A stretch of DNA of 64,000 nucleotides from an uncultured bacterium. Its GTDB lineage: Bacteria; Lernaellota; Lernaellaia; JACKCT01. This document shows, one piece after another, positions 2,661 to 60,400 of the stretch. Within the stretch, counting starts at the first letter, position 1, and every line of letters starts with the position of its first letter. The stretch is taken from contig CAZPJD010000225.1 in the NCBI GenBank assembly GCA_964586775.1, positions 464 through 64,463 on the forward strand. Reading direction: 5' to 3'. Made by a program: the position numbers and the translations under genes. A model generated the notes under the pieces. That model did not search any database, had not been told where the DNA came from, and saw nothing but the letters and a program-made list of their open reading frames with translations.

Positions 2661-4712
2661 ATGTCCCGCAAAGCGGCGGCGCTGGCCGTCATGTTGACCG
2701 TTCTGGCCGTGTGCGCGGCCGTTTTCCTGGCGTCGCCCCGGGACGACCTCGCGGCGGCGGACGTTTTCGCCAACGGCGCGATCGGCCCGCACGCGATGGA
2801 CCCCGTCCACCCGGTCGTGTTGCCCGCTCCCCAGTGGCCGCCGCGCGTCGTGAGCGCGTTTCCCAACACGTCGTACTTCTACGCCTTCGACAAGATCTAC
2901 CTGTTCGGCTACATCGATGGCACGACCTACACGCTCTACAACGCGGGCGGATCGCCGATCCAGAGCGGCACGCTCAACGACGGCGAGCACGTCGAGTTCG
3001 CCATCCTCACGGGTGTGTATCGCCTCGACGCCTCTGACCTGATCGCCGTGCTCGTGGGCAACGCCGACAACAACATCGTCGGTTACTACGCCGTCAACGA
3101 ACACTCGCTCGCCGTGGGCAACAAGTTCTACAGCTACCAGTACGCCAGCGGCCCCGACATGAAGCAGATCGCGTTCGCCTATCAGAACGGCACGACGATC
3201 CAGGCGTTCAACATGAACACCGGCGCTTCGCTCGGCACCACCACGATCAACGCGGGCGAGCACTGGGTGCTCAACACCGTTGCGAGCCGAAACAAGTACA
3301 TCAAGACGATCGCCGACAAGCCGATCTCGATCCTGAATTTCAGCGACATCGGTTACGCCGTGCCCGCGTCGACGGGCCTGTTCTCGGGCAAGCTCTTCCT
3401 GGGATACGCGGGATCGACGAGCGGCGACGGCGACGTGGTCGTGTCGAGCTTTACCGACGGCAACACCGTGACCGTGACGAACTCCACCACGAACGCCGTC
3501 ATCTTCACCGGCACGCTCGATCGCGGCGAGATGTGGCGGCAGACCTTTGCCGACATGTACTTCAAGGTCGAGTCGTCGGCCAACGTGTCGGTGAGCGTCG
3601 TGCCCTACATCGGCGCGGCGGGCGATTACCACTACATGTCCATCGCGTCGGACGACGTGGGCACGCGCATCGGCATCGATTTCTACTTCACCACCGTGAA
3701 CGGCCAGATCGACGTCTTCGCGTACGAGGACGCGACCAACGTCACCGTCACGGATACGCGCGGCACGGTGGACCCCGGCGACGACCTCGTGGCGTGGTCG
3801 GGCGCGCTCGATCAGGGCGGCCACCAGATGGTGACGTCGTACATGACGCAGTGGCACGTCGCGGCCGACAAAGGCGTGTCGGTGTTCACGAGCTTCGGAA
3901 CGCAGGCGGGTTCGGAGTTCATCCCGCTCTACGGCATCATCCTCGAGTGCGACAACGACGGCGACGGCCACGACGGGCCGCAGTGCGACGGCGACGATTG
4001 CAACGACTGGGACGACACGATCTATCCCGGCGCCGAGGAGATCAACTGCGATCGCATCGATCAGGACTGCGACGGAGAGGACCAGTGCCTGTGCGAAGGT
4101 CCCGAAGACTGCGACGACGGCATCTTCTGCAACGGCGCGGAAGAGTGCGACACGCAGACCGGGCTTTGCGGGCCGGGCGATTTCCCGTGTCCCGACGACG
4201 GCCTGTATTGCACCGGCCGCGAGCAGTGCAACGAAACGACGGACACGTGCGAGCAAAAGCAGGTGCCGAACTGCCCGGACGACGGCGCGTACTGCAACGG
4301 CGACGAGCTGTGTGACGAAGACCTCGACATGTGCGGTCACACCGGCAATCCGTGCCCCGACGACGGAGTGTTCTGCAACGGCTACGAGGAGTGCAACGAG
4401 CTGTCCGACCTGTGCGAGACGAACGTCGTGTGTGAAGACGACGGCGCGTTCTGCAACGGCGCGGAGACGTGCAACGAAGAGGCCCAGACCTGCGACCACG
4501 AGGGCAATCCCTGCCCCTCGGGCGAAATCTGTCTGGAAGACACGGACGAGTGCCTCGCCGGGGACGATGACGACATCGAGCCGCCGGCCGACGATGACGA
4601 AGAAGATCCCGGTCCGACGCCCGCCGGCGAAAAGGAAGAGGATGCGGGCTGGCCCGAGGGTCAGGTGACCGGCGGCTGCTGCGGTTGCGGAGACAACGGC
4701 ACGGACGACTGA
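2661..4712 (+). CDS. Secreted repeat protein with MopE-type and Myxococcus-type cysteine-rich repeats and an acidic Cys-rich C-terminus
   Basis: The real start is an internal ATG (MSRKAAALAVMLTVLAVCAAVFLA, a signal/anchor) within track ORF 1533-4712. About four beta-rich internal repeats of the form xTxVTVTDxxG...GxLxxGE. One CDGDDCNDWDDTIYPGAEEINCDRIDQDCDG motif. Five C(P/D/E)DDGxxC(N/T)GxExC modules. Tail is DDDDIEPPADDDEEDP...GGCCGCGDNGTDD. Confidence 0.75.
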   Translation: MSRKAAALAVMLTVLAVCAAVFLASPRDDLAAADVFANGAIGPHAMDPVHPVVLPAPQWPPRVVSAFPNTSYFYAFDKIYLFGYIDGTTYTLYNAGGSPIQSGTLNDGEHVEFAILTGVYRLDASDLIAVLVGNADNNIVGYYAVNEHSLAVGNKFYSYQYASGPDMKQIAFAYQNGTTIQAFNMNTGASLGTTTINAGEHWVLNTVASRNKYIKTIADKPISILNFSDIGYAVPASTGLFSGKLFLGYAGSTSGDGDVVVSSFTDGNTVTVTNSTTNAVIFTGTLDRGEMWRQTFADMYFKVESSANVSVSVVPYIGAAGDYHYMSIASDDVGTRIGIDFYFTTVNGQIDVFAYEDATNVTVTDTRGTVDPGDDLVAWSGALDQGGHQMVTSYMTQWHVAADKGVSVFTSFGTQAGSEFIPLYGIILECDNDGDGHDGPQCDGDDCNDWDDTIYPGAEEINCDRIDQDCDGEDQCLCEGPEDCDDGIFCNGAEECDTQTGLCGPGDFPCPDDGLYCTGREQCNETTDTCEQKQVPNCPDDGAYCNGDELCDEDLDMCGHTGNPCPDDGVFCNGYEECNELSDLCETNVVCEDDGAFCNGAETCNEEAQTCDHEGNPCPSGEICLEDTDECLAGDDDDIEPPADDDEEDPGPTPAGEKEEDAGWPEGQVTGGCCGCGDNGTDD

Positions 4713-5855: not shown

Positions 5856-5885
5856 TTGACACCGAAAAAACGCGCGTGATATGAA
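5856..5885 (+). promoter_or_regulatory. Candidate sigma70-type promoter for parA
   Basis: TTGACA at 5856-5861, an 18-nt spacer, then TGaTATGAA (extended -10-like) at 5877-5885. About 37 nt upstream of the parA ATG at 5922. Confidence 0.35.
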
Positions 5886-5921
5886 TCGCCGTCTTTCCTC
5901 TCCGGCGGGATTTTCCAGAGC

Positions 5922-6725
5922 ATGGCGGTCATCTCGATCACCAATCAAAAGGGCGGTGTCGGCAAAACGACCACGGCGATCAACCTGGGCGCCGGGCTCG
6001 CCCGCAAGGGCCTGCGCGTGCTGATCGTCGATCTCGACGCCCAGTGCAACGCCACGCAGTTCCTGTACCGCCGACTCGAGGATGACGAGCCGGGCGTGTG
6101 CGAGGCGCTGCTCGAGGAACGCCCCCTCGCAAAGATCGTCGTGAAGACCAATGTGGAGGGCCTCGATCTCGCCCCCGCCGGCGAAAGTCTCGCCAACGCC
6201 GATCTCAACCTCGCGAGCCTGATGGGGCGCGAGCGCTACCTGGCGAATCTGCTGGAAGACAAGACCCTGCGCGCGTACGACCACATCCTCATCGACACCG
6301 GCCCCTATCTGGGGCTGCTCACCATCAACGCCTTCGTCGCCTCCGACGCGCTGATCGTGCCGGTGAGCTGCGAATATCTGCCGCTCCTCGGGCTCAAGTT
6401 CCTGCTCGAAACCGTGGACAAGGTGAAACGCAAGCTGCACCCCGATCTCGAGATCCTGGGATTCCTGCTGACCATGGTGGACCGGCGCGAAAAAATCACG
6501 GGCGAGGTCGAGCAGGTGATGGCGAGCCGGTTCGGGGATCGGTTGTTTCAGACCCGGATTCGGATTAATACCAAGCACAAGAGCGCGCCGCACGCCCGGG
6601 AGACGATCTTCCAGTATGAGGGTTCAGCCTCGGGGAAAGGGACGCAGGATTTTGCGGCCCTGACCGAAGAGGTGCTCGCGCGTCTCGATGGAGGCAAGAC
6701 CCGTCATGGCCAAAAAGCCCGGTAG
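5922..6725 (+). CDS. parA: ParA/Soj-family ATPase (orphan; no ParB in the window)
   Basis: 267 aa. Deviant Walker A NQKGGVGKTTT, then LIVDLDAQ and ILIDTGP (Walker B). Soj-like throughout. Confidence 0.9.
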   Translation: MAVISITNQKGGVGKTTTAINLGAGLARKGLRVLIVDLDAQCNATQFLYRRLEDDEPGVCEALLEERPLAKIVVKTNVEGLDLAPAGESLANADLNLASLMGRERYLANLLEDKTLRAYDHILIDTGPYLGLLTINAFVASDALIVPVSCEYLPLLGLKFLLETVDKVKRKLHPDLEILGFLLTMVDRREKITGEVEQVMASRFGDRLFQTRIRINTKHKSAPHARETIFQYEGSASGKGTQDFAALTEEVLARLDGGKTRHGQKAR

Positions 6726-7374
6726 CAAAGGCTTCGATTCCATCTTCGACGCGACCGACGCCAAGTCGGCCAAGTCGGCGCGCGCGCGCCGGACGACCGC
6801 CAAGTCGACCCCGCCGGCCGCGTCCGCCGCGTCTGCCGCCCACGCGGCCGAGGCCAAGCCCGCGAACGGCAACGGCAACGGCAACGGATTCGAGCCCTAC
6901 GAACTCGATCGCTTCTCGGTGGTGAAAACCCTGCTCAAGACGCACGAAGACGAGGTGATCTACCGCAAGACCAAGGAAGACCGCCTGCTCATCACGGGCA
7001 TCTCCCTCGTCGCGGGCGTCGCCATCGGCGCGTTCCTCATCCGCGCTTTGTGCGGTGGCTGCGCGGGAAGCTGGATCTATTCGTTCCTCTTCCGCGTCTT
7101 TTTCTCGCTCATGGTCGGCCTCACGGGCTTCACCATCGCGGCCATGATGGAACTCAACCGCACGCGCTTGCAGGACCTGCTCGCGATCGTCGTGAAGATC
7201 CACGAACAGTTCCGGCTCTTCGACGACGGCGTGTACGACAAGTCCGGCTCGGCGTTTCTGCCCAGCACCTACAAGTTCGTCGGCAGCATCAACGACGACG
7301 AGACCAACTACGCACTTCTCGTTTTGAAGGTCGCCTCGGTCATCACGGCCGTTTTCGTCCTCTTGTTCGTCTGA
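6706..7374 (+). CDS. Membrane protein with a basic ParB-like N-terminal peptide (candidate ParA partner)
   Basis: GGAGG lies 11 nt upstream of the ATG at 6706 (alternative ATG at 6688). Overlaps the parA 3' end by 20 nt. N-terminus is MAKKPGSKGFDSIFD, followed by a Lys/Arg/Ala-rich stretch, a GNGNGNG tract and about 3 TM helices. Confidence 0.6.
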   Translation: MAKKPGSKGFDSIFDATDAKSAKSARARRTTAKSTPPAASAASAAHAAEAKPANGNGNGNGFEPYELDRFSVVKTLLKTHEDEVIYRKTKEDRLLITGISLVAGVAIGAFLIRALCGGCAGSWIYSFLFRVFFSLMVGLTGFTIAAMMELNRTRLQDLLAIVVKIHEQFRLFDDGVYDKSGSAFLPSTYKFVGSINDDETNYALLVLKVASVITAVFVLLFV

Positions 7375-7395
7375 TCGCAGCGCCGCCGCCAAGGA

Positions 7396-7426
7396 CCGCC
7401 GGGCTCGATCGGGCACCGGCGGTTTT
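7396..7426 (+). terminator. Candidate intrinsic terminator or attenuator
   Basis: CCGCCGG ... CCGGCGG 7-bp stem followed by TTTT, 22 nt after the stop at 7374. Confidence 0.35.
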
Positions 7427-7438
7427 CATTGGGACGCC

Positions 7439-9781
7439 ATGACGGATCGCGAAGCGCATTCCGATTCCCCGGCCCGTCGCGCCCCGCGCGCGTTCGGGGT
7501 GTGGTGCGTCGCGACGGGCGTCCTCACCGCGGTACAGCTCGCGCTGCCACTCGTCGGCGTGCCCGGTTACGAGGCCGCCCAAATCCAGACGATCTGGTTC
7601 GCCGTCGCCGCGGGTCACATCGCCATCGCGTGGGCAAGGCATCGCTCGAACACGCCCCTGCTCGCGACCGCCGCGACCGCCGCGCTGGCGACCGCGCTCG
7701 TCTGGCTGGCGTGCGTCGCGGCGCTGTTCGGCGCGGGATTCGCGCGCGGCGCATGCGACGCATCGCGCGACGTGTGGTGGTTTCTCATTCTGCCCGGCCC
7801 GGCCATTGCGCTGGGCGCGGCGTGGGGCGCGTTTCTGGCATCGCTCGGGCTTTCCGGTCGCCGAACGCACCTCGCTTATGTCGCCGTCGTCGCCGTCCAT
7901 CTCGCGTGGGAGCTCGCCGGCATCCGCACGCAGCCGATGACCTTTTCCTACAACGCGCTCCTCGGCTACTTCCCGGGACCGGTGTACGACCGCGCGGTGC
8001 GCATCGGCGCGACGCTTGCCGCCTCACGCGCGCTCGGCCTTTCCGAGGCGACGGCGCTCTTCGCACTGGCGGCCCTCGTCGAAGGAAAGCGCGGGCGAAA
8101 AGCCCTCGCCGCCGCGCCGGTTGCGTCGTTCGCGGCAGGTTTCGTCGCGGCGGTCGCGCTCGCGATCGTCGGACCGACCCTCGACGCCTCGACCGATCGC
8201 GCGAAGATCGACGCCACCCTCGGCGCGATTGCCCGCGGGCCGAACGTGACGATGCACTTCCCCGAGGATACGCCGCCGGACGAGGCGCGGCTGTTGCTCA
8301 TCGACCTCGAGCACCGGTTTACGCGCCAGGCGCGGTGGCTCGGCCTCGCCGAGCCCGAGCCCGTCGATGCGTACTACTACCGCTCGGCCCGCGAAAAGAA
8401 GCGGCTGACCGGCGCGGGCGACACGCAGTGGGCGAGTTGCTGGAACCGCGAGATGCACATGACGATCGAGCGGCCGCCGCACTCGGTTCTCAAGCACGAG
8501 GTCGTGCACGTGCTGGCCGAGCCGTGGGGAATTCCGGGGCTGGGGTTCTCGCGCGTGCTCGGCCTCACCGAAGGGCTCGCCGTCGCGTCCGAGGTCTGGC
8601 GCGAGGACTGGACGATCCCGTATTGGGCCGCCGCGATGAAATCCGTCGGCCGTCTGCCCGATCTCGCCGACATCTCGGGGCCCACGGGCTTCTGGCGACT
8701 TTCCGGCACACGCAGCTACCTCGCGTGGGGCGGGTTCCTCACGTGGCTGCGCGAGCGTCATTCGAACGACGCCATTGCGCGCGTGTATCGCACGGGCGAC
8801 TTTCGCGAGGCGTTCGGCAAGAGCCTTCGCGAGCTGGTGGACGAGTGGGAATCGTCGCTCGATGCGATTCGGGTCCCGCCCGATCTCCTCCGCGTCGCGG
8901 CGTATCGATTCTTCCGACCGTCTCTCTTCGAGGGCCGCTGCGCGCGAACCGTCGGCACGCTGGAAGAAGACGGCGCACGGGCGCTCGACGCGGGGCGCGC
9001 GCAAAAGTCGGTGCGTCTTTTCGCCGATGCGCTCGAACTTTCCGGCGGCGATTCGCGCAACCGGCGCGACTTCATGGCGGCCCTCGTGTCGGCGCGGAGA
9101 CTCGACCAGGCCGAGCGCGAGGCCGCAGAAATCTTCGCCGCGGAGGGCGCGGAGTTTTTCGCGACGCCCGAGCCTGGCAAGCCCGTTCACGGCAATCTGC
9201 TCGCGGCGACGCAGGCCCGGCTCACGCAGGCCGCCCTCGCGTGGCGTCGCGGAGATCGCGAATCCGCGCGGCGGTTTTACGAAGACGTGCGCGCATTCGG
9301 TGTGGGCGACGCGAATCGACGCGAGGCAATCGTGGCGCTTGACGCGCTCGGTTCCGCCGCGATCGAGCCGATGATTCGCCGCTATCTGGTGGAGCCCGAT
9401 GCCGAGGGCGCGCGTTGGCACGATCTGCACGCGGCGCTGGATGCCCGGCCCGATGACGCGGTGGCGCGTTACCTGCTCGGGCGCAGGCTCTACGGCGCGC
9501 GACGGTTTGACGACGCGGTGACGCACCTCGATGCCGCGCTCACGCTCGGTTTGCCGGACGACGCGCTGACGCGCGAGGCGTGGCGCACGCTGGGCCGCGC
9601 ACACTACGAGGCCGGGCGATTCGAGGACGCGGCGGTGGTGTTCACCGAGCGCCGACCCGCGAGTCTGTCGGAGGGTGCGCGCAAAGACGCCGACGAGTGG
9701 ATCGACCGCTGCCTGTTCGCCGCGACGTTCCCCGAAACCGTTTCGATCGAAAACGTCGGTGGAATGGGCGACGACGACTGA
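7439..9781 (+). CDS. Membrane-anchored MA-clan (gluzincin-like) metallopeptidase with C-terminal TPR region
   Basis: 780 aa. About 6 N-terminal TM helices. HEVVH (HExxH) followed by TEGLA (candidate third-ligand Glu), as in Peptidase_MA_2-type proteins. The C-terminal ~300 aa are TPR-like helical repeats. Confidence 0.6.
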   Translation: MTDREAHSDSPARRAPRAFGVWCVATGVLTAVQLALPLVGVPGYEAAQIQTIWFAVAAGHIAIAWARHRSNTPLLATAATAALATALVWLACVAALFGAGFARGACDASRDVWWFLILPGPAIALGAAWGAFLASLGLSGRRTHLAYVAVVAVHLAWELAGIRTQPMTFSYNALLGYFPGPVYDRAVRIGATLAASRALGLSEATALFALAALVEGKRGRKALAAAPVASFAAGFVAAVALAIVGPTLDASTDRAKIDATLGAIARGPNVTMHFPEDTPPDEARLLLIDLEHRFTRQARWLGLAEPEPVDAYYYRSAREKKRLTGAGDTQWASCWNREMHMTIERPPHSVLKHEVVHVLAEPWGIPGLGFSRVLGLTEGLAVASEVWREDWTIPYWAAAMKSVGRLPDLADISGPTGFWRLSGTRSYLAWGGFLTWLRERHSNDAIARVYRTGDFREAFGKSLRELVDEWESSLDAIRVPPDLLRVAAYRFFRPSLFEGRCARTVGTLEEDGARALDAGRAQKSVRLFADALELSGGDSRNRRDFMAALVSARRLDQAEREAAEIFAAEGAEFFATPEPGKPVHGNLLAATQARLTQAALAWRRGDRESARRFYEDVRAFGVGDANRREAIVALDALGSAAIEPMIRRYLVEPDAEGARWHDLHAALDARPDDAVARYLLGRRLYGARRFDDAVTHLDAALTLGLPDDALTREAWRTLGRAHYEAGRFEDAAVVFTERRPASLSEGARKDADEWIDRCLFAATFPETVSIENVGGMGDDD

Positions 9782-22839: not shown

Positions 22840-23343
22840 ATGACGCAAGGCGCGGGCACGGCGGACTCGGGAACGGCAAGAGCGGGACGGGTCACTCCGC
22901 TGATGATCGCCGCGATCGCCGCGGCGCTGACCGTGGGCATGGCGGCGGGGCTCGGCGCGTACACGTTTGTTTATGCCAAGGGCTATTCTTACATGGGCAA
23001 TGATCCGGCGTCGTGCGTGAACTGCCACATCATGAAAGACCAGTACGAGGCATGGGCGCGCAGCAGCCATCACGCGGTCGCGACCTGCAACGATTGCCAC
23101 GCGCCGCACGACCTCGTCGGCAAGTATCGTGTCAAGGCGACGAACGGCTATCACCACTCGCTCGCGTTCACGACCGGCGAATTCGCCGATCCGATCCACA
23201 TCAAGCCCGGCAACCGCGCCGTCACCGAGGCGCAGTGCCGTCACTGCCACGCCGACATCGTCCACGGCATCGACACCACGCCCGAGCCCGGCGAGGAGAT
23301 GTCGTGCGTGCGGTGCCACGCGTCGGTGGGGCATCTGCATTAG
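22840..23343 (+). CDS. nrfH: Cytochrome c nitrite reductase small subunit NrfH (NapC/NirT family tetraheme quinol dehydrogenase)
   Basis: 167 aa. One N-terminal TM helix. Four CxxCH motifs (CVNCH, CNDCH, CRHCH, CVRCH). The first occurs as CxxCHxM, as in NrfH. Confidence 0.9.
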   Translation: MTQGAGTADSGTARAGRVTPLMIAAIAAALTVGMAAGLGAYTFVYAKGYSYMGNDPASCVNCHIMKDQYEAWARSSHHAVATCNDCHAPHDLVGKYRVKATNGYHHSLAFTTGEFADPIHIKPGNRAVTEAQCRHCHADIVHGIDTTPEPGEEMSCVRCHASVGHLH

Positions 23344-23425
23344 GAATTTCGCGCGGCCGTCGTGCGGTCGCGCCGGGTCTTTCGAGATTGGGTCCTGTAC
23401 GGCTAACCGTCCCGGGGAGGTCCTC

Positions 23426-24940
23426 ATGAGTCCGGAAACCACGAAGAGACGCTGGCTCTCGCTGTTCCTGATGTTCGCCGTCGTCGCGGCGGTCGCCGCT
23501 GGCCTGTCGGCTTACGTGCTCACGAGCGTGATGGAGCACAAGCAGGAGGCGAAAAATCCGTTCTTCCGCGTCGTCGAGATCACCGACGACACGGGAGATC
23601 CGGCGATCTGGGGAAAGAACTTCCCGCTGCACTACGATCGCTATCTGCGCACGGCGGACATGGTGCGTACGCGTCGGGGAGGCAGCGAGGCGTTGCCGCA
23701 CACGCCGACCGACGCCGACCCGCGCAGCGTCGTGACGGTGTCGAAGATCGAGGATGACACGCGCCTGAAGCGGATGTGGGCGGGCTACGCGTTTTCCAAG
23801 GACTTTCGCGAAGAGCGCGGCCACGCCTACATGCTCGAAGACCAGATCTACACCGAGCGCCAGAAAGTCGGCCAGCCGGGCACGTGTCTGAACTGCCACG
23901 CGTCGACGTACCTGATCTACAAAGAGCTGGGCAACGGCGACATCATGGCCGGCTTCGACAAGATGAACTCGATGAAATACGACGAGGCCAAGACCTACGC
24001 CAAGCACCCGGTGGCGTGCATCGATTGCCACGACGCGCAGACCATGCAGCTTCGCATCACGCGCCCGGCGTTTATCGAGGGTATCAAGGCGCTCAAGGCG
24101 TCGCAGGGCGTGGCCGACTACGACGTGAACAAGATGGCGACGCGCCAGGAGATGCGGTCGTTCGTGTGCGGCCAGTGCCACGTCGAGTATTACTTCAAGG
24201 GCACCGAGAAGCGCCTGACCTTCCCGTGGCACGAGGGCGTGGGCGGCGAGGACATCCTCGACTACTACAACGAGCAGGGCTTCAAGGACTGGGTGCATGC
24301 CGACACGGGTGCGCCGATGCTCAAGGCGCAGCACCCCGAGTTCGAGATGTGGAACAAGGGCATTCACTCCAAGGCGGGAGTCACGTGCGCCGACTGCCAC
24401 ATGCCCTACATGCGTGAAGGCGCGATGAAGATCAGTGACCACCACGTGCGCAGCCCGCTGCTCAACATCAACAAGTCGTGCGGCACCTGCCACCGCGCCT
24501 CGGAAGAGGAACTCAAGGCGCGCGCCGAGAACATCCAGGAGACATTCTTTGGCCTGCGCAATCAGGCGATGGACGCGCTGATGGATCTGATCGACGACCT
24601 GAAGGCCGCGAAGGACGCGGGGCGGCCCGACGCCGAACTCGCCGCCGCGCGCGAATTGCAGCGCCGCGCGAGCTTCCTGATCGACTTCTGCGAGGCCGAG
24701 AACTCGACGGGCTTCCACGCGCCGCAGGAATCGACGCGCCTGCTCGGCGTGGCGATCAACTACGCCCGCGACGGCCAGCTCTCCGTGCGCGACCCGAATT
24801 ACAAGCCGAAGACCATCGCGGCGCACGAGGCCGCGATGGCGGCGAAGGCCGCGGCGACGCCCGCCGCCGCTCCAGCCGAGAAAAAGGCCGAGGGCCAGAC
24901 GGCCGCCAACGAGAAATCCCCCGGCGCAAGCGCGCTGTAA
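23426..24940 (+). CDS. nrfA: Pentaheme cytochrome c nitrite reductase NrfA (CxxCH variant at heme 1)
   Basis: 504 aa. GGGGAGG RBS. N-terminal anchor/signal. Five heme motifs: CLNCH, CIDCH, CGQCH, CADCH and CGTCH. The RGHAYMLED...QPGTCLNCH context corresponds to the NrfA catalytic heme site. Confidence 0.9.
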   Translation: MSPETTKRRWLSLFLMFAVVAAVAAGLSAYVLTSVMEHKQEAKNPFFRVVEITDDTGDPAIWGKNFPLHYDRYLRTADMVRTRRGGSEALPHTPTDADPRSVVTVSKIEDDTRLKRMWAGYAFSKDFREERGHAYMLEDQIYTERQKVGQPGTCLNCHASTYLIYKELGNGDIMAGFDKMNSMKYDEAKTYAKHPVACIDCHDAQTMQLRITRPAFIEGIKALKASQGVADYDVNKMATRQEMRSFVCGQCHVEYYFKGTEKRLTFPWHEGVGGEDILDYYNEQGFKDWVHADTGAPMLKAQHPEFEMWNKGIHSKAGVTCADCHMPYMREGAMKISDHHVRSPLLNINKSCGTCHRASEEELKARAENIQETFFGLRNQAMDALMDLIDDLKAAKDAGRPDAELAAARELQRRASFLIDFCEAENSTGFHAPQESTRLLGVAINYARDGQLSVRDPNYKPKTIAAHEAAMAAKAAATPAAAPAEKKAEGQTAANEKSPGASAL

Positions 24941-47438: not shown

Positions 47439-48674
47439 TCATTGGCGCGCGATGCGGCGCACCACGAGCCCCGAACGCAATTTGGGCTCGAACCACGTGG
47501 ACTTGGGCGGCATGACCTCGCCCGCGTCGGCGACGGCGAGCAGGTCGTCCATCGAGGTGGCGAAACACGCGATCGCGAGGCCCGACGGCGACGCGGCGAC
47601 GCGCTGTTCCAGCTCGGCGAGCGGCCGTGCGCCGCCGACGAACTCGATGCGCGGATTCGTGCGTGGGTTGTCGATGCCCAGGATCGGCCCGAGCAACTCG
47701 TCCTGCAAAACGGCCACGTCGAGCCGCGACGCGACGGACGTGCCGTTCGGTTTTTTCTTGGGCGCGATGCGAACCCACGAACCGTCGATGAAAAGGCCGA
47801 ATTCGCCCGGGCGCTCCGGCGCGGGCGTCGCCGCGCGTTTCACGTCGAACACCCATTCGACGCGCGCCATGACGTCGGCGACCGTTCGCGACTCGAGATC
47901 CGTGACGACCCGGTGATACGGTAGGATGCGAAGCTGGTTGTGCGGAAAGATCGTGGCCATCACGCGGGCGGCGGGCGATTCGGGTGAACCGTCGCCGACG
48001 CGCCCCTCGCGCCACACACGGGTCGAAGCGGCGATGCGGTGGTGGCCGTCGGCCACATAGAGCGATTCCACGTCGGCGAAGGCCGCGAGCAGGTTCTTCA
48101 CGTCGTCGTCGCGATCCACCACCCACAGCCGGTGGCGCACGCCGTCGGCCGCGCGAAACGCGATCGTGGGTTCGGTGCGCGCATGGCCGAGGATCGCGGC
48201 ATCCACGGAAGGGTCGGAGCGGTACGCCAGATAGACCTGCCCGGTATTGGCACCCGTCGTCGCGATGTGCCGCGTGCGGTCGAGCTCCTTGTCGGGGCGC
48301 GTGAATTCGTGGCGCTTGATGACGCCCGCCTCGTATTCGGCGAGGCTCACCTCGGCGATGAGGCCGGTCTGCGTGCGCCCCTCGCGTTCGAGCTCGTACA
48401 CGTAAAACTCGGGGCGCTCGCTTTCGCGAAGAGTTCCCGCCGAGACGAGGCGGTCGAGTTCGGCGCGTGCGCGCGCGTACACGGCGTCGCCGTAGGGGTC
48501 CTCGCTCTCGGCCATGGCGGCCTCGGAACGGACCACGCGCATGAAGCTGTCGGGGTGCGTCGCCGCGATTTGCCGCGCCTCGGCGGCGTTCACGACGTCA
48601 TAGGGCGGGCACGACACATTGGCCGCGCAATCGGCCCGAACCACATCGCCTCGAAAAGGCGCGACGAACACCAT
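47439..48674 (-). CDS. DUF1015 domain-containing protein
   Basis: Start MVFVAPFRGDVV, then CPPYDVV, GVIKRHEFTRPDKELDR and YVADGHHR, all as I recall for the DUF1015 family. ATG at 48674; the track start at 48749 is less likely. Confidence 0.75.
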   Translation of the reverse strand: MVFVAPFRGDVVRADCAANVSCPPYDVVNAAEARQIAATHPDSFMRVVRSEAAMAESEDPYGDAVYARARAELDRLVSAGTLRESERPEFYVYELEREGRTQTGLIAEVSLAEYEAGVIKRHEFTRPDKELDRTRHIATTGANTGQVYLAYRSDPSVDAAILGHARTEPTIAFRAADGVRHRLWVVDRDDDVKNLLAAFADVESLYVADGHHRIAASTRVWREGRVGDGSPESPAARVMATIFPHNQLRILPYHRVVTDLESRTVADVMARVEWVFDVKRAATPAPERPGEFGLFIDGSWVRIAPKKKPNGTSVASRLDVAVLQDELLGPILGIDNPRTNPRIEFVGGARPLAELEQRVAASPSGLAIACFATSMDDLLAVADAGEVMPPKSTWFEPKLRSGLVVRRIARQ

Positions 48675-57610: not shown

Positions 57611-60400
57611 CTACTCCTCCAACACGTCTGGATCGAGCGGGTCGGCCAGCCATTCGGGATCGACCAGCATGTAGAGGTTGTCCTCAATGATCTGGCCTTG
57701 GCTCTTGAGGAACAACGCGGCCTGACGGCGCGCGGCGATGGAATACATGATGGAGTAGGGGTCGAAGCGCGGGGCGAGCATGTACTCGTGGTTGTATCCC
57801 GGGTGCACGCGCCACGCCTGATGCGCCACGCTCTGCAACGGCAGGTTGCCGTTGGCGAACGACACGCGGATCTCGTTGAGCGCGCCGCGGTCGAGCAGAT
57901 TGTCCATGTGCCAATCGTCGATGACGCCCGCCGCGCGGATGATCGCCGTGCCCGCCTGCAGAGGAATCGCCGAGTCGGGCGAGCACACCTGCATGATGAA
58001 GTTCTTCGGGCCCGCCTCGGTCACCGGATCGAGGAACAGGTGCGGCGCGAAGCTGATGGGGTCGGACAGGCCGACGGCCCACTGCGCGTTGTCGATGAAC
58101 GAGCGCGCCTCGGGCGTGTTGCGATCGACGCCCAGGCCCCGGTACTCGGTGGCGAACTCGAACTTGCCGATGGGCTTCTCGGTCGCCGGATCGGTCACCG
58201 TCAGCCGCAGCCAGTCGCCCTTGTCCGCGCCCACCGCGATGGCGAAATTCCCCGTCGCGTCCACCGTCTTGTGCTTGATGACGCCGGTCTTGGTGTTTTC
58301 CATGCTGATGCGCTTGCCCGCCGCGAGGGGCACGTCGCCGATGAAGGTGTTGAACACCTCGCTGCCGAATTCGAGATCGAGCGCCTCGGCGTGATAGTTG
58401 AGGTGCGTCACGCCCTTGGCCGCGTCGGGCGTGCCGATGATCATGGGACCGAGCAGGTCGGCGCGCACGCCGTAGTTGACGTTGGGGATCGTCGTGCGCT
58501 GCAAAATGTCGGTGAGACCGCCGCCGGGCACGTTGAACACGGCGGACTTGATCTCGGGCTCCAGCGACACGAAGGGAATGCCGATCAGCGAGCCGAGGCT
58601 CATGCCGACGAACGAGATTTCACCGTCCGGCCCGGCCACGTCGAGCACGCCGTCGAGGTTGAAATCGCCCTCCTCCAGATCCAGCTTGCCGTTGCCGTTC
58701 CAATCCGTGCCCATGTTGCGCAGCACGCGCACGGCCTGGAAAAGATCGAACACGGTTTGGTGCGAGATCGCCACCGTGCGGAAGATGTCGGCCGAATAAA
58801 AGCTCTGGCCCGAGATGATGAGCCCGTCGCCGTCGAAGTCCGGCGTGCGCCCGTGCAGCATCGCGCCCAGGAACGTCTTGTCCTTCAGCACCTGCACCAG
58901 CTCTTTCGAATCGAGGCCGCTGATGTCGATGTTGGGGTAGAAGATCCCCATGATGATCTTGACAAGCAGGCTCGCCGGCACGTCGCCCAGCGGGCCGATC
59001 TCAAGGTCGTTGAAGCTGTCGAGCGCGTAGTAGATGGCGCTCACGTAAGTCTCGGGGCCGTGCTCCGCCGCGTCGATACCGATCGTCGCGATGCCCTGCT
59101 CGGCCATGTGGTTCGCCAGCGCCAGCATGTCGAGCCGGTTGCGGATGTTGGCGTGCTGGTGGAACGTGATCGGGTACGGCGGCTGCGCATAGTTGTTCTT
59201 GGCGCACGGCTTGGGCACCGCGATGTAGAACGGCACCTCCTCGGGCGCCCACTCGGCCTCGCCGGTTTCGTAGTTCACGTGAAAGACGCGGTCGTGCGTT
59301 TCGAGGAAGCTCGCGGTCGTGAACGATCCCGAGACGATGTAGTCCACGCTGTCGGTGCCGAACATGACGTCGAGCGGCACGTTCTGGCCGCCCTCGATGA
59401 ATCCGCCGATCAGATCCATGAAGCTGCCGAAGGCCCGCGCGTCCATGACGTAGTCGTTGCCGTCGGTCTCGGTGCCCATCGAGAACGGATCGAGCTGCGT
59501 GATCTTGGGGACGAGATCGTCGGCGAGGTAGTCGAATGGGCCCTCGCCGTGAAGTCCGCGCCGCAGCTCCTGCAAATGATCGGTGATCGTCGCCGTCGTG
59601 AATTCCCAACCAAACGCGATGTCCTCGGGATTCACGCCTTTTTTCGTCGCCAGAATCTCGGCGGCGTCGGTGAGCGAATCGAACTGCTCGGGGAACGTGA
59701 CCTTTTCAAAATAATCCGGCGGGCGCACCGGGAAACCGTTCTCGCCCTTCAGGCCGGTCGTCAGCACCACGGCGTATTTGCTGGCCTGCTTGAGCGGCAC
59801 GAGCGGGCGGATCAGCAGCGTGTTCGTCGCGTCCTCATACCACTCCACGCGGTTGTCCGCGGCGAAGATGACCGTGGGGTTGTCGGCGTTTTCGTCGTTC
59901 GGGAAAAACGCCTCGGGGTCCACCATGTTCTTGGGGTAGTAGCCCTTGCCCAGGTCGAGCTCGACGATGTCGCCGTAGTACTTGGAGTCGCGCTGCACGT
60001 TGACGAGGTAGATGTTCTCGTCGCGGATCGTGAACAGGTTGATCGGCATCGAGAACGACACGGCGACGTGCGAGAAGTTCGCGAAACCGTCGAGCTGACG
60101 AAGCCTCGAGCGCAGGTCGCGCCCGAGCTGCGTCTCGGCCTCCTGCGGAATGTTGACGCGAAGGCCGGTGCGCGTCGTCGGGTCGTCTTTGGCGAGGATG
60201 TTGTTGGGCTGCGGGATCAGCGAAATCGGTTTCGCGCCCGGCTCGAAGAGCACCTCGGGGCCGTCGCCGCCGGGGTTCTCGAAGTCGTAGCCCTCGGGCC
60301 GCTCATCGTCCGATTCGCCGCGGGTGCATCCCCCCGCCGTCACGAGCGCGAGCGCCAGCACCGCCAAACCTACCCACGACCAATTCGCTTTCACCACCAT
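57611..60400 (-). CDS. Large lipoprotein, putative secreted alpha/beta hydrolase (lipase-like) with Ca-binding-type loops
   Basis: Start MVVKANWSWVGLAVLALALVTAGGC (alternative ATG at 60436). ISFVGMSLGSLIG (GxSxG). DFDGDG and NGNGKLDLEEGDFNLDGVLD loops. Track ORF 57611-60685 is over-extended at the 5' end. Confidence 0.55.
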   Translation of the reverse strand: MVVKANWSWVGLAVLALALVTAGGCTRGESDDERPEGYDFENPGGDGPEVLFEPGAKPISLIPQPNNILAKDDPTTRTGLRVNIPQEAETQLGRDLRSRLRQLDGFANFSHVAVSFSMPINLFTIRDENIYLVNVQRDSKYYGDIVELDLGKGYYPKNMVDPEAFFPNDENADNPTVIFAADNRVEWYEDATNTLLIRPLVPLKQASKYAVVLTTGLKGENGFPVRPPDYFEKVTFPEQFDSLTDAAEILATKKGVNPEDIAFGWEFTTATITDHLQELRRGLHGEGPFDYLADDLVPKITQLDPFSMGTETDGNDYVMDARAFGSFMDLIGGFIEGGQNVPLDVMFGTDSVDYIVSGSFTTASFLETHDRVFHVNYETGEAEWAPEEVPFYIAVPKPCAKNNYAQPPYPITFHQHANIRNRLDMLALANHMAEQGIATIGIDAAEHGPETYVSAIYYALDSFNDLEIGPLGDVPASLLVKIIMGIFYPNIDISGLDSKELVQVLKDKTFLGAMLHGRTPDFDGDGLIISGQSFYSADIFRTVAISHQTVFDLFQAVRVLRNMGTDWNGNGKLDLEEGDFNLDGVLDVAGPDGEISFVGMSLGSLIGIPFVSLEPEIKSAVFNVPGGGLTDILQRTTIPNVNYGVRADLLGPMIIGTPDAAKGVTHLNYHAEALDLEFGSEVFNTFIGDVPLAAGKRISMENTKTGVIKHKTVDATGNFAIAVGADKGDWLRLTVTDPATEKPIGKFEFATEYRGLGVDRNTPEARSFIDNAQWAVGLSDPISFAPHLFLDPVTEAGPKNFIMQVCSPDSAIPLQAGTAIIRAAGVIDDWHMDNLLDRGALNEIRVSFANGNLPLQSVAHQAWRVHPGYNHEYMLAPRFDPYSIMYSIAARRQAALFLKSQGQIIEDNLYMLVDPEWLADPLDPDVLEE

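Follow-up and report, generated by a model that had tools for sequence, protein, structure and literature searches.

A Soj-like ParA ATPase and its putative integral membrane partner in Candidatus Lernaellota

ParA/MinD ATPases are general positioning motors of bacteria. The cargo described for them in literature comprises DNA, carboxysomes, chemoreceptor arrays, and the divisome regulator PomXY, and the partner proteins described are soluble or peripheral. The locus presented here, on contig CAZPJD010000225.1 of an uncultured bacterium, raises the question of what a ParA might act on when the gene overlapping its 3' end encodes a protein with transmembrane (TM) helices. The sequence examined, hereafter called the window, has a length of 64,000 nucleotides (nt), representing almost the entire 64,583-bp contig, and a GC content of 66%. 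Its ParA and the adjacent membrane protein probably form a positioning module of the ParA/MinD type, in which the activating partner is an integral membrane protein and not a DNA-binding ParB. Such a coupling to a putative integral membrane adaptor had been proposed in a preliminary description of the locus, and it is now supported by synteny, by the pattern of conservation in the partner's tail, and by the presence of the same motif on other ParA partners. The gene pair, its synteny, the conserved motif and its presence on unrelated partners and a true ParB, and the largely kept peptide pocket are direct observations; that the two proteins bind, that the ATPase is stimulated, that DNA serves as the matrix, and which cargo is moved are what we infer.

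The window ParA belongs to the ParA/MinD superfamily of P-loop ATPases. Its complete open reading frame (ORF) of 267 amino acids (aa), located at 5922-6725 on the plus strand like all other features of the operon, matches Pfam AAA_31 (7e-52) and CbiA, and the closest PDB structures are Myxococcus xanthus ParA (8RAY, 3.5e-46), Thermus thermophilus Soj (1WCV, 3.8e-44), and Helicobacter pylori Soj, so that the initial assignment as a Soj-like ParA with a KGGVGKT motif was borne out. The deviant Walker A (KGGVGKT, residues 10-16), Walker A' (VDLD, 36-39), and Walker B (ILIDTGP, 121-127) motifs are all intact. Identity to canonical ParA/Soj amounts to 39-44%, and the protein displays signatures of a subfamily that are absent from the canonical proteins, namely DLDxQ without proline, APAGExLA, DTxPYLGLLT, PVSCExLPxLGLK, DRRExIT, IRxNTxxK, and GxGxxD.

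Judged by its residues, this ParA has the features of the branch that uses the nucleoid as matrix rather than those of the MinD-like branch. Basic residues are present at positions of non-specific DNA binding, i.e., R189, which we take to be the DNA-binding position R189 of Bacillus subtilis Soj, and K218, aligning with R238 of M. xanthus; R214 and K220 are likewise basic and conserved within the subfamily. The C-terminus (...EEVLARLDGGKTRHGQKAR) is short and polar and shows no amphipathic membrane-targeting helix of the MinD type. Since the basic DNA-binding residues are kept and the helix is missing, the nucleoid is the likely matrix. All NCBIfam matches of the protein stayed under the equivalog cut-offs. 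An identity as MinD of a MinDE system was rejected, as TIGR01968 covers only residues 3-41 (38.9 vs. 212.9 bits), the C-terminal helix is absent, and the neighboring genes are unrelated; an identity as a bacterial tyrosine kinase (BY-kinase) was also rejected, with TIGR01007 reaching 59 bits against a cut-off of 108 and no C-terminal tyrosine cluster. The subfamily is not represented in the plasmid collection, where the best ParA is 44% identical.

Neither a ParB nor a parS was found near the ParA, in agreement with the preliminary description. A scan of all 41 proteins predicted in the window gave no match to Pfam ParBc, and tblastn with two genuine ParBs from annotated records revealed no match in any frame of the window (best E 1.6) and none in about 780 kb of related loci. 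For the parS consensus TGTTNCACGTGAAACA, the window holds near-matches only at 47836-47851 (two mismatches) and 59271-59286 (three mismatches); both palindromes are intragenic and more than 40 kb away from the gene pair, and as many matches arose in 2 of 100 shuffled sequences. Of the hallmarks of ParABS, the window therefore shows neither an adjacent ParB, with its ParB/Srx and helix-turn-helix (HTH) domains, nor a parS close to the operon.

The gene found in place of parB begins with the ATG at 6706 and ends with the stop codon at 7374, encoding 222 aa and overlapping the ParA 3' end by 20 nt. It has its own ribosome-binding site, a GGAGG at 6690-6694 within the ParA coding region, 11 nt 5' of the ATG, just as had been read at the outset. 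An upstream ATG at 6688 is not regarded as the start because all homologues begin with MAKK or MPKK. The GC content at third codon positions reaches 0.84 in the ParA ORF and 0.89 in the partner ORF, an excess over the 66% of the window that identifies both as real genes.

The partner protein starts with MAKKPGSKGFDSIFDAT (residues 1-17, 6706-6756), a putative ParA-binding and activating peptide according to the alignment, the motif table, the sister partners, and one ParB, all described below. It is followed by a variable disordered linker rich in lysine, arginine, alanine, and proline (residues 18-66, 6757-6903), which ends with ANGNGNGNG, including a GNGNGNG tract. Hydropathy reveals three TM segments, namely residues 94-112 (6985-7041, hydropathy 2.48), about 124-149 (7075-7152), followed by an invariant ELNRxRLQD, and 204-222 (7315-7371, hydropathy 2.76), the latter forming a C-terminal anchor. 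In the AlphaFold2 model, calculated with 19 homologues, residues 1-66 are disordered, with a predicted local distance difference test (pLDDT) score below 50, and helices extend over residues 69-115, 123-168, 188-197, and 199-221, the first and last of them enclosing or matching TM helices 1 and 3; the mean pLDDT is 60, with 70-84 in the helical part. The unstructured Lys/Arg/Ala-rich stretch, the GNGNGNG tract, and the approximately three TM helices noticed previously are thus confirmed by model and hydropathy. The N-terminal 93 residues contain 17 lysines and arginines and the loop between TM helices 1 and 2 contains one, which by the positive-inside rule would place the tail in the cytoplasm. 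Searches of the partner against Pfam and NCBIfam revealed no family, Foldseek comparison of its model with the PDB gave nothing significant (best E 0.63), and the plasmid collection held no match.

Conservation within the partner family is restricted to the TM and juxtamembrane regions, to cytoplasmic helices, and, within the cytoplasmic tail, to the N-terminal peptide alone; the linker behind it differs among homologues in both length and sequence. In the window partner and the homologues P0017, P0018, and P0020, the linkers are rich in lysine, alanine, and proline and resemble histone-H1-like tails, with a weak match to Pfam HC2 (histone H1-like) in P0018. Judging from this composition, the linkers of these four proteins might bind DNA non-specifically.

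The family is small: 5.8 billion sequences contained 19 relatives at E<=1e-3, and an exhaustive profile search yielded 14 clusters among 1.84 billion representatives and no distant relatives beyond these. Genomic contexts were taken from six divergent members, 11 GTDB species representatives, two look-ups starting from ParA, and the recoveries of a metagenome scan. In all of the approximately 25 non-redundant partner loci mapped via tblastn, a ParA of the same clade lies directly upstream, abutting or overlapping the partner gene, while the outer flanks differ. The preliminary description had let its reading stand or fall with the co-occurrence of both genes in relatives, and the pair has passed this check. 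With 62-72% identity to the window ParA, the ParAs that have TM partners group in a single clade. The metagenome-assembled genomes (MAGs) from which these loci originate go by the labels 'bacterium' or 'Deltaproteobacteria bacterium'; FEN-1099 is part of several of their names, and Candidatus (Ca.) Alcyoniella australis, a member of the phylum Ca. Lernaellota, is among them (PMC9324843). The ParA/membrane-partner system is probably confined to Ca. Lernaellota (FEN-1099).

To see what exactly is conserved in the N-terminal peptide, 31 distinct N-termini of the family were tabulated with the I-F pair as reference. All 31 agree at four positions, namely D at -2, I at 0, F at +1, and T at +4, corresponding to D11, I13, F14, and T17 of the window protein; 26 of them have F, L, or M at position -3, and lysines are enriched upstream of the core, dominating positions -9 to -4. 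This alignment gives [FL]-D-[SD]-I-F-x-x-T as the conserved core, preceded by lysines at variable positions. From the core K-G-(F/L)-D-(S/A)-(I/L)-F suggested before, the D/I/F part has therefore been retained, while 'K-G' is confined to the closest relatives. An invariant core in front of a freely varying linker is typical of a short linear motif carried by a flexible tether. As a rule, partner proteins of such ATPases address the ATPase through a charged, disordered N-terminus and the cargo through the remainder (PMC10241942, PMC11407121, PMC13170346), and the protein described here likewise has a short, positively charged, disordered N-terminal peptide and is encoded beside the ATPase. An identity as a PomX-type peptide was rejected: PomX contacts its ATPase through M1, K2, A4, F5, V9, K13, R15, and L16, with K13 and R15 being required for activity (PMC13170346), and these contact residues do not match the spacing of the motif.

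The motif is not limited to membrane proteins. A metagenome scan with subfamily-specific patterns provided 80 loci, in which genes were called by a simple script, and all 1917 six-frame ORFs with a length of 60 aa or more were searched within their first 40 residues for [KR], up to five residues, [SDNGT][IL]F, one or two residues, and T. A match was obtained in 22 ORFs, 16 of which are the ORF immediately 3' of the ParA; these comprise nine adaptors with three TM helices and seven soluble proteins of 116-127 aa. N-termini of the soluble partners are, for example, MVLDKRKVRESIFSDTS... and ...RERDDIFQDTS..., and the only residues invariant among the N-termini of the 116-127-aa proteins are M1, F, and T. 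A further partner, of 523 aa, starts with MVLNKDKVRQSIFDVV, contains a long disordered stretch of acidic character, and has a C-terminus resembling a zinc ribbon; a truncated relative also starts with MVLNKDKVRQSIFDVV, followed by an Ala/Glu/Arg-rich region. The motif-bearing soluble partners of the sister ParAs are located at 4872-6443 in L031, 4501-4866 in L032, 1760-2116 in L033, 752-1114 in L034, 4458-4835 in L044, 1673-2056 in L092, 3525-3875 in L093, and 3790-4347 in L029. Those of about 120 aa display a strand-helix pattern compatible with ribbon-helix-helix (RHH) DNA binders, and an RHH fold is suspected on the basis of this pattern; Pfam and PDB searches of these small proteins gave no match and no support for RHH.

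A quick neighbor-joining tree, calculated without bootstrap, placed the ParAs with TM partners in one clade and those with soluble partners in its sister group, with all ParAs of the subfamily well removed from the ParA of M. xanthus and the Soj of T. thermophilus. In addition, a ParB/Spo0J-family protein of Monoglobus pectinilyticus, encoded beside a ParA (L111 3264-4208, NZ_OY725736.1), begins with MAGRKSDFTLTKLDDLFST, ...KLDDLFST, and this N-terminus fits the adaptor motif rather than the canonical GLGRGLxALL. The occurrence of one motif on unrelated partners and on a true ParB is the strongest evidence available that the peptide would be the ParA-interaction element of the subfamily, and it indicates the membrane protein as the cognate partner of the window ParA. 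In many loci of high GC content (for example, L046, L054, L059, L074, L083, and L091), a conserved plus-strand stretch, MPSLDIFCLRIFIAFSRLSRTSTS, was observed 3' of subfamily ParAs; most likely it results from translating a conserved convergent gene on the wrong strand, and a small conserved ORF (MNFTGVKVFSATKAREREDLGEQV...) is found about 330 nt beyond it.

Comparison with the ParA-ParB complex of M. xanthus provided further insights into how the peptide may bind. There, ParA receives the peptide in a hydrophobic pocket lined by V116, L150, L152, L155, L187, and L192, and R13 of ParB contacts Y81, E82, D110, and E117 and is required for ATPase stimulation (PMC12462528). In the alignment with 8RAY, the pocket positions correspond to L95, L130, L132, I135, K167, and L172 of the window ParA, five of the six being still hydrophobic, and the arginine site corresponds to C60, E61, S89, and N96; the residues at both sites are conserved across the clade. 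F10-x-x-I13-F14 of the adaptor has the spacing of L15-x-x-L18-I19 of M. xanthus ParB, with lysines upstream in place of R13. Matching spacing and upstream lysines make a ParB-like binding mode plausible, with the charged contact being remodelled.

Taken together, the following cycle is proposed. ParA would dimerize upon binding ATP and coat the nucleoid, and the partner would reside in the inner membrane by its three TM helices with the N-terminus in the cytoplasm. The flexible basic linker of about 50 residues would extend the peptide (KK-x-[FL]-D-[SD]-I-F-x-x-T) to nucleoid-bound ParA dimers, where it may dock as a short amphipathic helix, F10, I13, and F14 pointing to the same side, into the hydrophobic pocket found at the edge of the dimer. 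Docking would trigger ATP hydrolysis and release of ParA, and through repeated cycles the membrane protein and its load would track the ParA gradient on the nucleoid or become spaced along it. As for the origin, a small soluble partner, probably one that binds DNA, may have been the source of the ParA-interaction peptide, which was then grafted onto a membrane anchor. We tentatively suggest, with slightly more doubt than confidence, that this is the first ParA/MinD system with an integral membrane activator, whose long flexible tail reads out a ParA gradient on the nucleoid so that an envelope-spanning peptidase/permease-like complex is spaced, partitioned, or localized, and whose peptide was grafted from a soluble partner.

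The most obvious load is encoded by the third gene of the operon (7439-9781), the product of which, with 780 aa, has an unusual architecture that combines an ABC-2-permease-like TM domain, a gluzincin metallopeptidase domain, and C-terminal TPR. Its AlphaFold2 model is of high quality (pLDDT 92, predicted template modelling score 0.90). The N-terminal part contains seven TM helices, and no ABC ATPase is encoded nearby. The features of gluzincins (MA clan) are present, i.e., an HExxH motif (HEVVH, 353-357) with a downstream Glu ligand (E378) in a thermolysin-like, M9/M1-like fold, and H353, E354, H357, and E378 are invariant in 39 homologues. Basic loops (RHR, GRR, and KRGRK) suggest a periplasmic location of the peptidase and TPR parts. 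The family has 43 uncharacterized members and is broader than the adaptor family. A homologue with 30-51% identity to the window protein follows the gene pair in all lineages except for one clade (L001/L006/L012). In many relatives, a further gene separates the adaptor gene from that of the 780-aa protein; its product of 574-588 aa comprises a weak receiver (REC) domain, DUF4388/PATAN, a TM segment, and TPR (L002 8693-10417; L008 5124-6890; L026 7439-8695; L027 7464-9212); in L010 (3618-6782) and L021 it is fused to the 780-aa homologue, and the window operon has no such gene. PATAN response regulators are polarity regulators of type IV pilus motors (10.1101/2021.06.11.447907). The permease-like/metallopeptidase/TPR protein is the likely cargo.

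Several observations weigh against the reading as a membrane-coupled positioning module. One divergent family member, P0028, does not have the motif, and the basic residue of the peptide is not at a fixed position. The patch that receives R13 of ParB is altered in the window ParA (Y81 to C, D110 to S, and E117 to N), and the pocket itself is common to all Soj-like ParAs and is hence no proof of specificity. As regards the cargo, the 780-aa gene is unlinked in the clade mentioned above, a homologue (P0039) from the L001 sample being located on another contig, and distant homologues, some from other lineages and one of them labelled Polyangiaceae, occur without ParA or adaptor; linkage is therefore frequent but not obligatory, leaving the identity of the cargo uncertain.

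Polar landmarks, i.e., TipN, PopZ, and HubP, are known to act on ParA. The membrane protein could accordingly be a landmark or sink for a chromosomal ParABS system, sequestering or resetting ParA at the membrane, with a canonical ParB/parS elsewhere in the genome as the real cargo. The closest PDB relatives of the window ParA are indeed chromosomal ParA/Soj proteins, the window contains the two weak parS-like sites, and the ParB searches span the window and related loci rather than whole genomes. Nevertheless, we consider this explanation unlikely, since the ParA subfamily is well apart from canonical ParA in identity and signatures, the patch for the canonical ParB arginine is changed, no ParB appeared in the window or the related loci, and in the sister clades the interaction motif sits on the adjacent gene and not on a distant ParB. 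Similarly, the adaptor may be imagined as a membrane-anchored substitute of ParB, with a lysine/alanine/proline-rich linker that binds DNA non-specifically and tethers or segregates the nucleoid, DNA being the cargo. The composition of the linkers with their one weak histone-H1-like match, and the small sister partners with their RHH-compatible pattern, would fit; yet sequence and charge of the linker are poorly conserved, that of the window protein is just moderately basic, no centromere-like repeats were noted, the RHH assignment gained no support from Pfam or PDB, and the conserved TM and juxtamembrane regions speak for a function at the membrane side, which makes a DNA cargo improbable.

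No higher probability is given to the idea that the ParA-like protein is no positioning motor at all, but a regulatory or energizing ATPase of the ABC-2-like permease/peptidase, activated by the adaptor as a transmembrane modulator. The permease-like character of the 780-aa protein in a neighborhood without an ABC ATPase gene, the weak NCBIfam similarity of ParA to tyrosine autokinases, and the precedent of CapA/CpsC activating the ParA/MinD-fold kinases CapB/CpsD (PMC4574921) would be in accordance with it. The kinase matches, however, are far under the cut-off, the tyrosine cluster is missing, the motif is also found on partners without a membrane machine, and the 780-aa gene is not always linked. 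Finally, the adjacency might be fortuitous and the ParB-like N-terminus a product of chance, as the peptide is short and the K-G-F core first proposed is not conserved. Complete synteny in about 25 loci with differing flanks and overlapping or abutting genes, four invariant motif positions, and the strong enrichment of the motif directly 3' of related ParAs effectively refute this, leaving it scarcely any credibility.

Compared with known systems, the proposed membrane-coupled module shares with chromosomal ParABS (Soj/Spo0J; 8RAY) the fold and motifs of the ATPase, a partner gene directly 3', most of the peptide pocket, and a disordered N-terminal partner peptide with a hydrophobic-x-x-hydrophobic-hydrophobic pattern and upstream basic residues. 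It differs in that the partner has three TM helices instead of a ParB/Srx CTPase, an HTH, or a dimerization domain, and that no parS was found, in addition to the low identity of the ParA, its own signatures, and its changed arginine patch. The nearest architectural precedent is type Ib partition (ParF/ParG of TP228 and delta/omega of pSM19035), with a small ParA devoid of an N-terminal DNA-binding domain and a partner whose flexible N-terminal tail activates the ATPase, a general layout also seen in the soluble partners of about 120 aa of the sister clade. In contrast to type Ib, the partner described here has a membrane anchor in place of a globular part, Pfam and PDB searches of the sister partners gave no match to RHH proteins, and the loci look chromosomal, with no adaptor in plasmid records.

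PomXYZ, McdAB of carboxysomes, as well as ParC/ParP and PpfA/TlpT of chemoreceptor arrays also combine a nucleoid-bound ParA-like ATPase with non-DNA cargo and a charged N-terminal peptide, and the gene neighborhood likewise implies the cargo. Their partners are soluble or peripheral, whereas the cargo here would be an integral membrane or envelope complex, and PomX, McdB, ParP, and TlpT show no sequence relationship to the window partner. MinD/MinE resembles the proposed module in its ATPase superfamily, in an activator peptide that binds where the two subunits of the dimer meet, and in its association with the membrane; MinD, though, is membrane-bound via its C-terminal amphipathic helix and MinE is peripheral, while the partner described here is membrane-embedded. 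In the split BY-kinases (CapA/CapB and CpsC/CpsD), a cytoplasmic peptide of an adjacent small polytopic membrane protein activates a P-loop protein of the ParA/MinD fold, which by analogy is the sole precedent for a membrane activator (PMC4574921); there, activation comes from a C-terminal peptide and acts on a tyrosine autokinase, which carries a Tyr cluster at its C-terminus. A literature search, of incomplete coverage and thus providing absence of evidence only, revealed no description of an integral membrane partner of a ParA/MinD ATPase.

If the proposed reading is true, the diffusion-ratchet principle reaches cargo that diffuses in the plane of the membrane over a nucleoid matrix, a geometry of which we know no prior analysis. 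One ParA subfamily and one motif are combined with three unrelated partner bodies, i.e., small soluble, long disordered, and three-TM proteins, and this series may represent a natural experiment in which cargo specificity was rewired by exchanging the body behind a conserved activating peptide. The peptide is short and hence amenable to biochemistry. The system as a whole gives initial functional access to an operon conserved in the uncultured phylum Ca. Lernaellota (FEN-1099) as well as to an uncharacterized permease-like/gluzincin/TPR family.

As to the signals around the operon, a GC-rich hairpin followed by UUUU lies between the adaptor gene and the 780-aa gene (7392-7431) and is a possible partial or leaky terminator on weak evidence: its minimum free energy of -32.2 kcal/mol is not significant against shuffles (z -1.6), and it was not called in a consensus terminator scan. 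A sigma-70 scan called no promoter, the TTGACA at 5856 having no acceptable -10 under the scan rule, and an Rfam scan of the window gave no matches.

Elsewhere in the window, 2736-4712 encodes a large secreted-looking protein, the C-terminal third of which consists of Cys/Asp-rich repeats (...CNGAEECD..., ...CPDDG.FCNG.E.C...) and for which no Pfam match was obtained at E<=1e-4. NapC/NirT-type and cytochrome c552 genes, resembling nrfH and nrfA, are present at 22840-24940 and imply dissimilatory nitrite reduction to ammonium. Their gene calls (22840-23343 and 23129-24940) overlap, so the start of nrfA is probably located further downstream.

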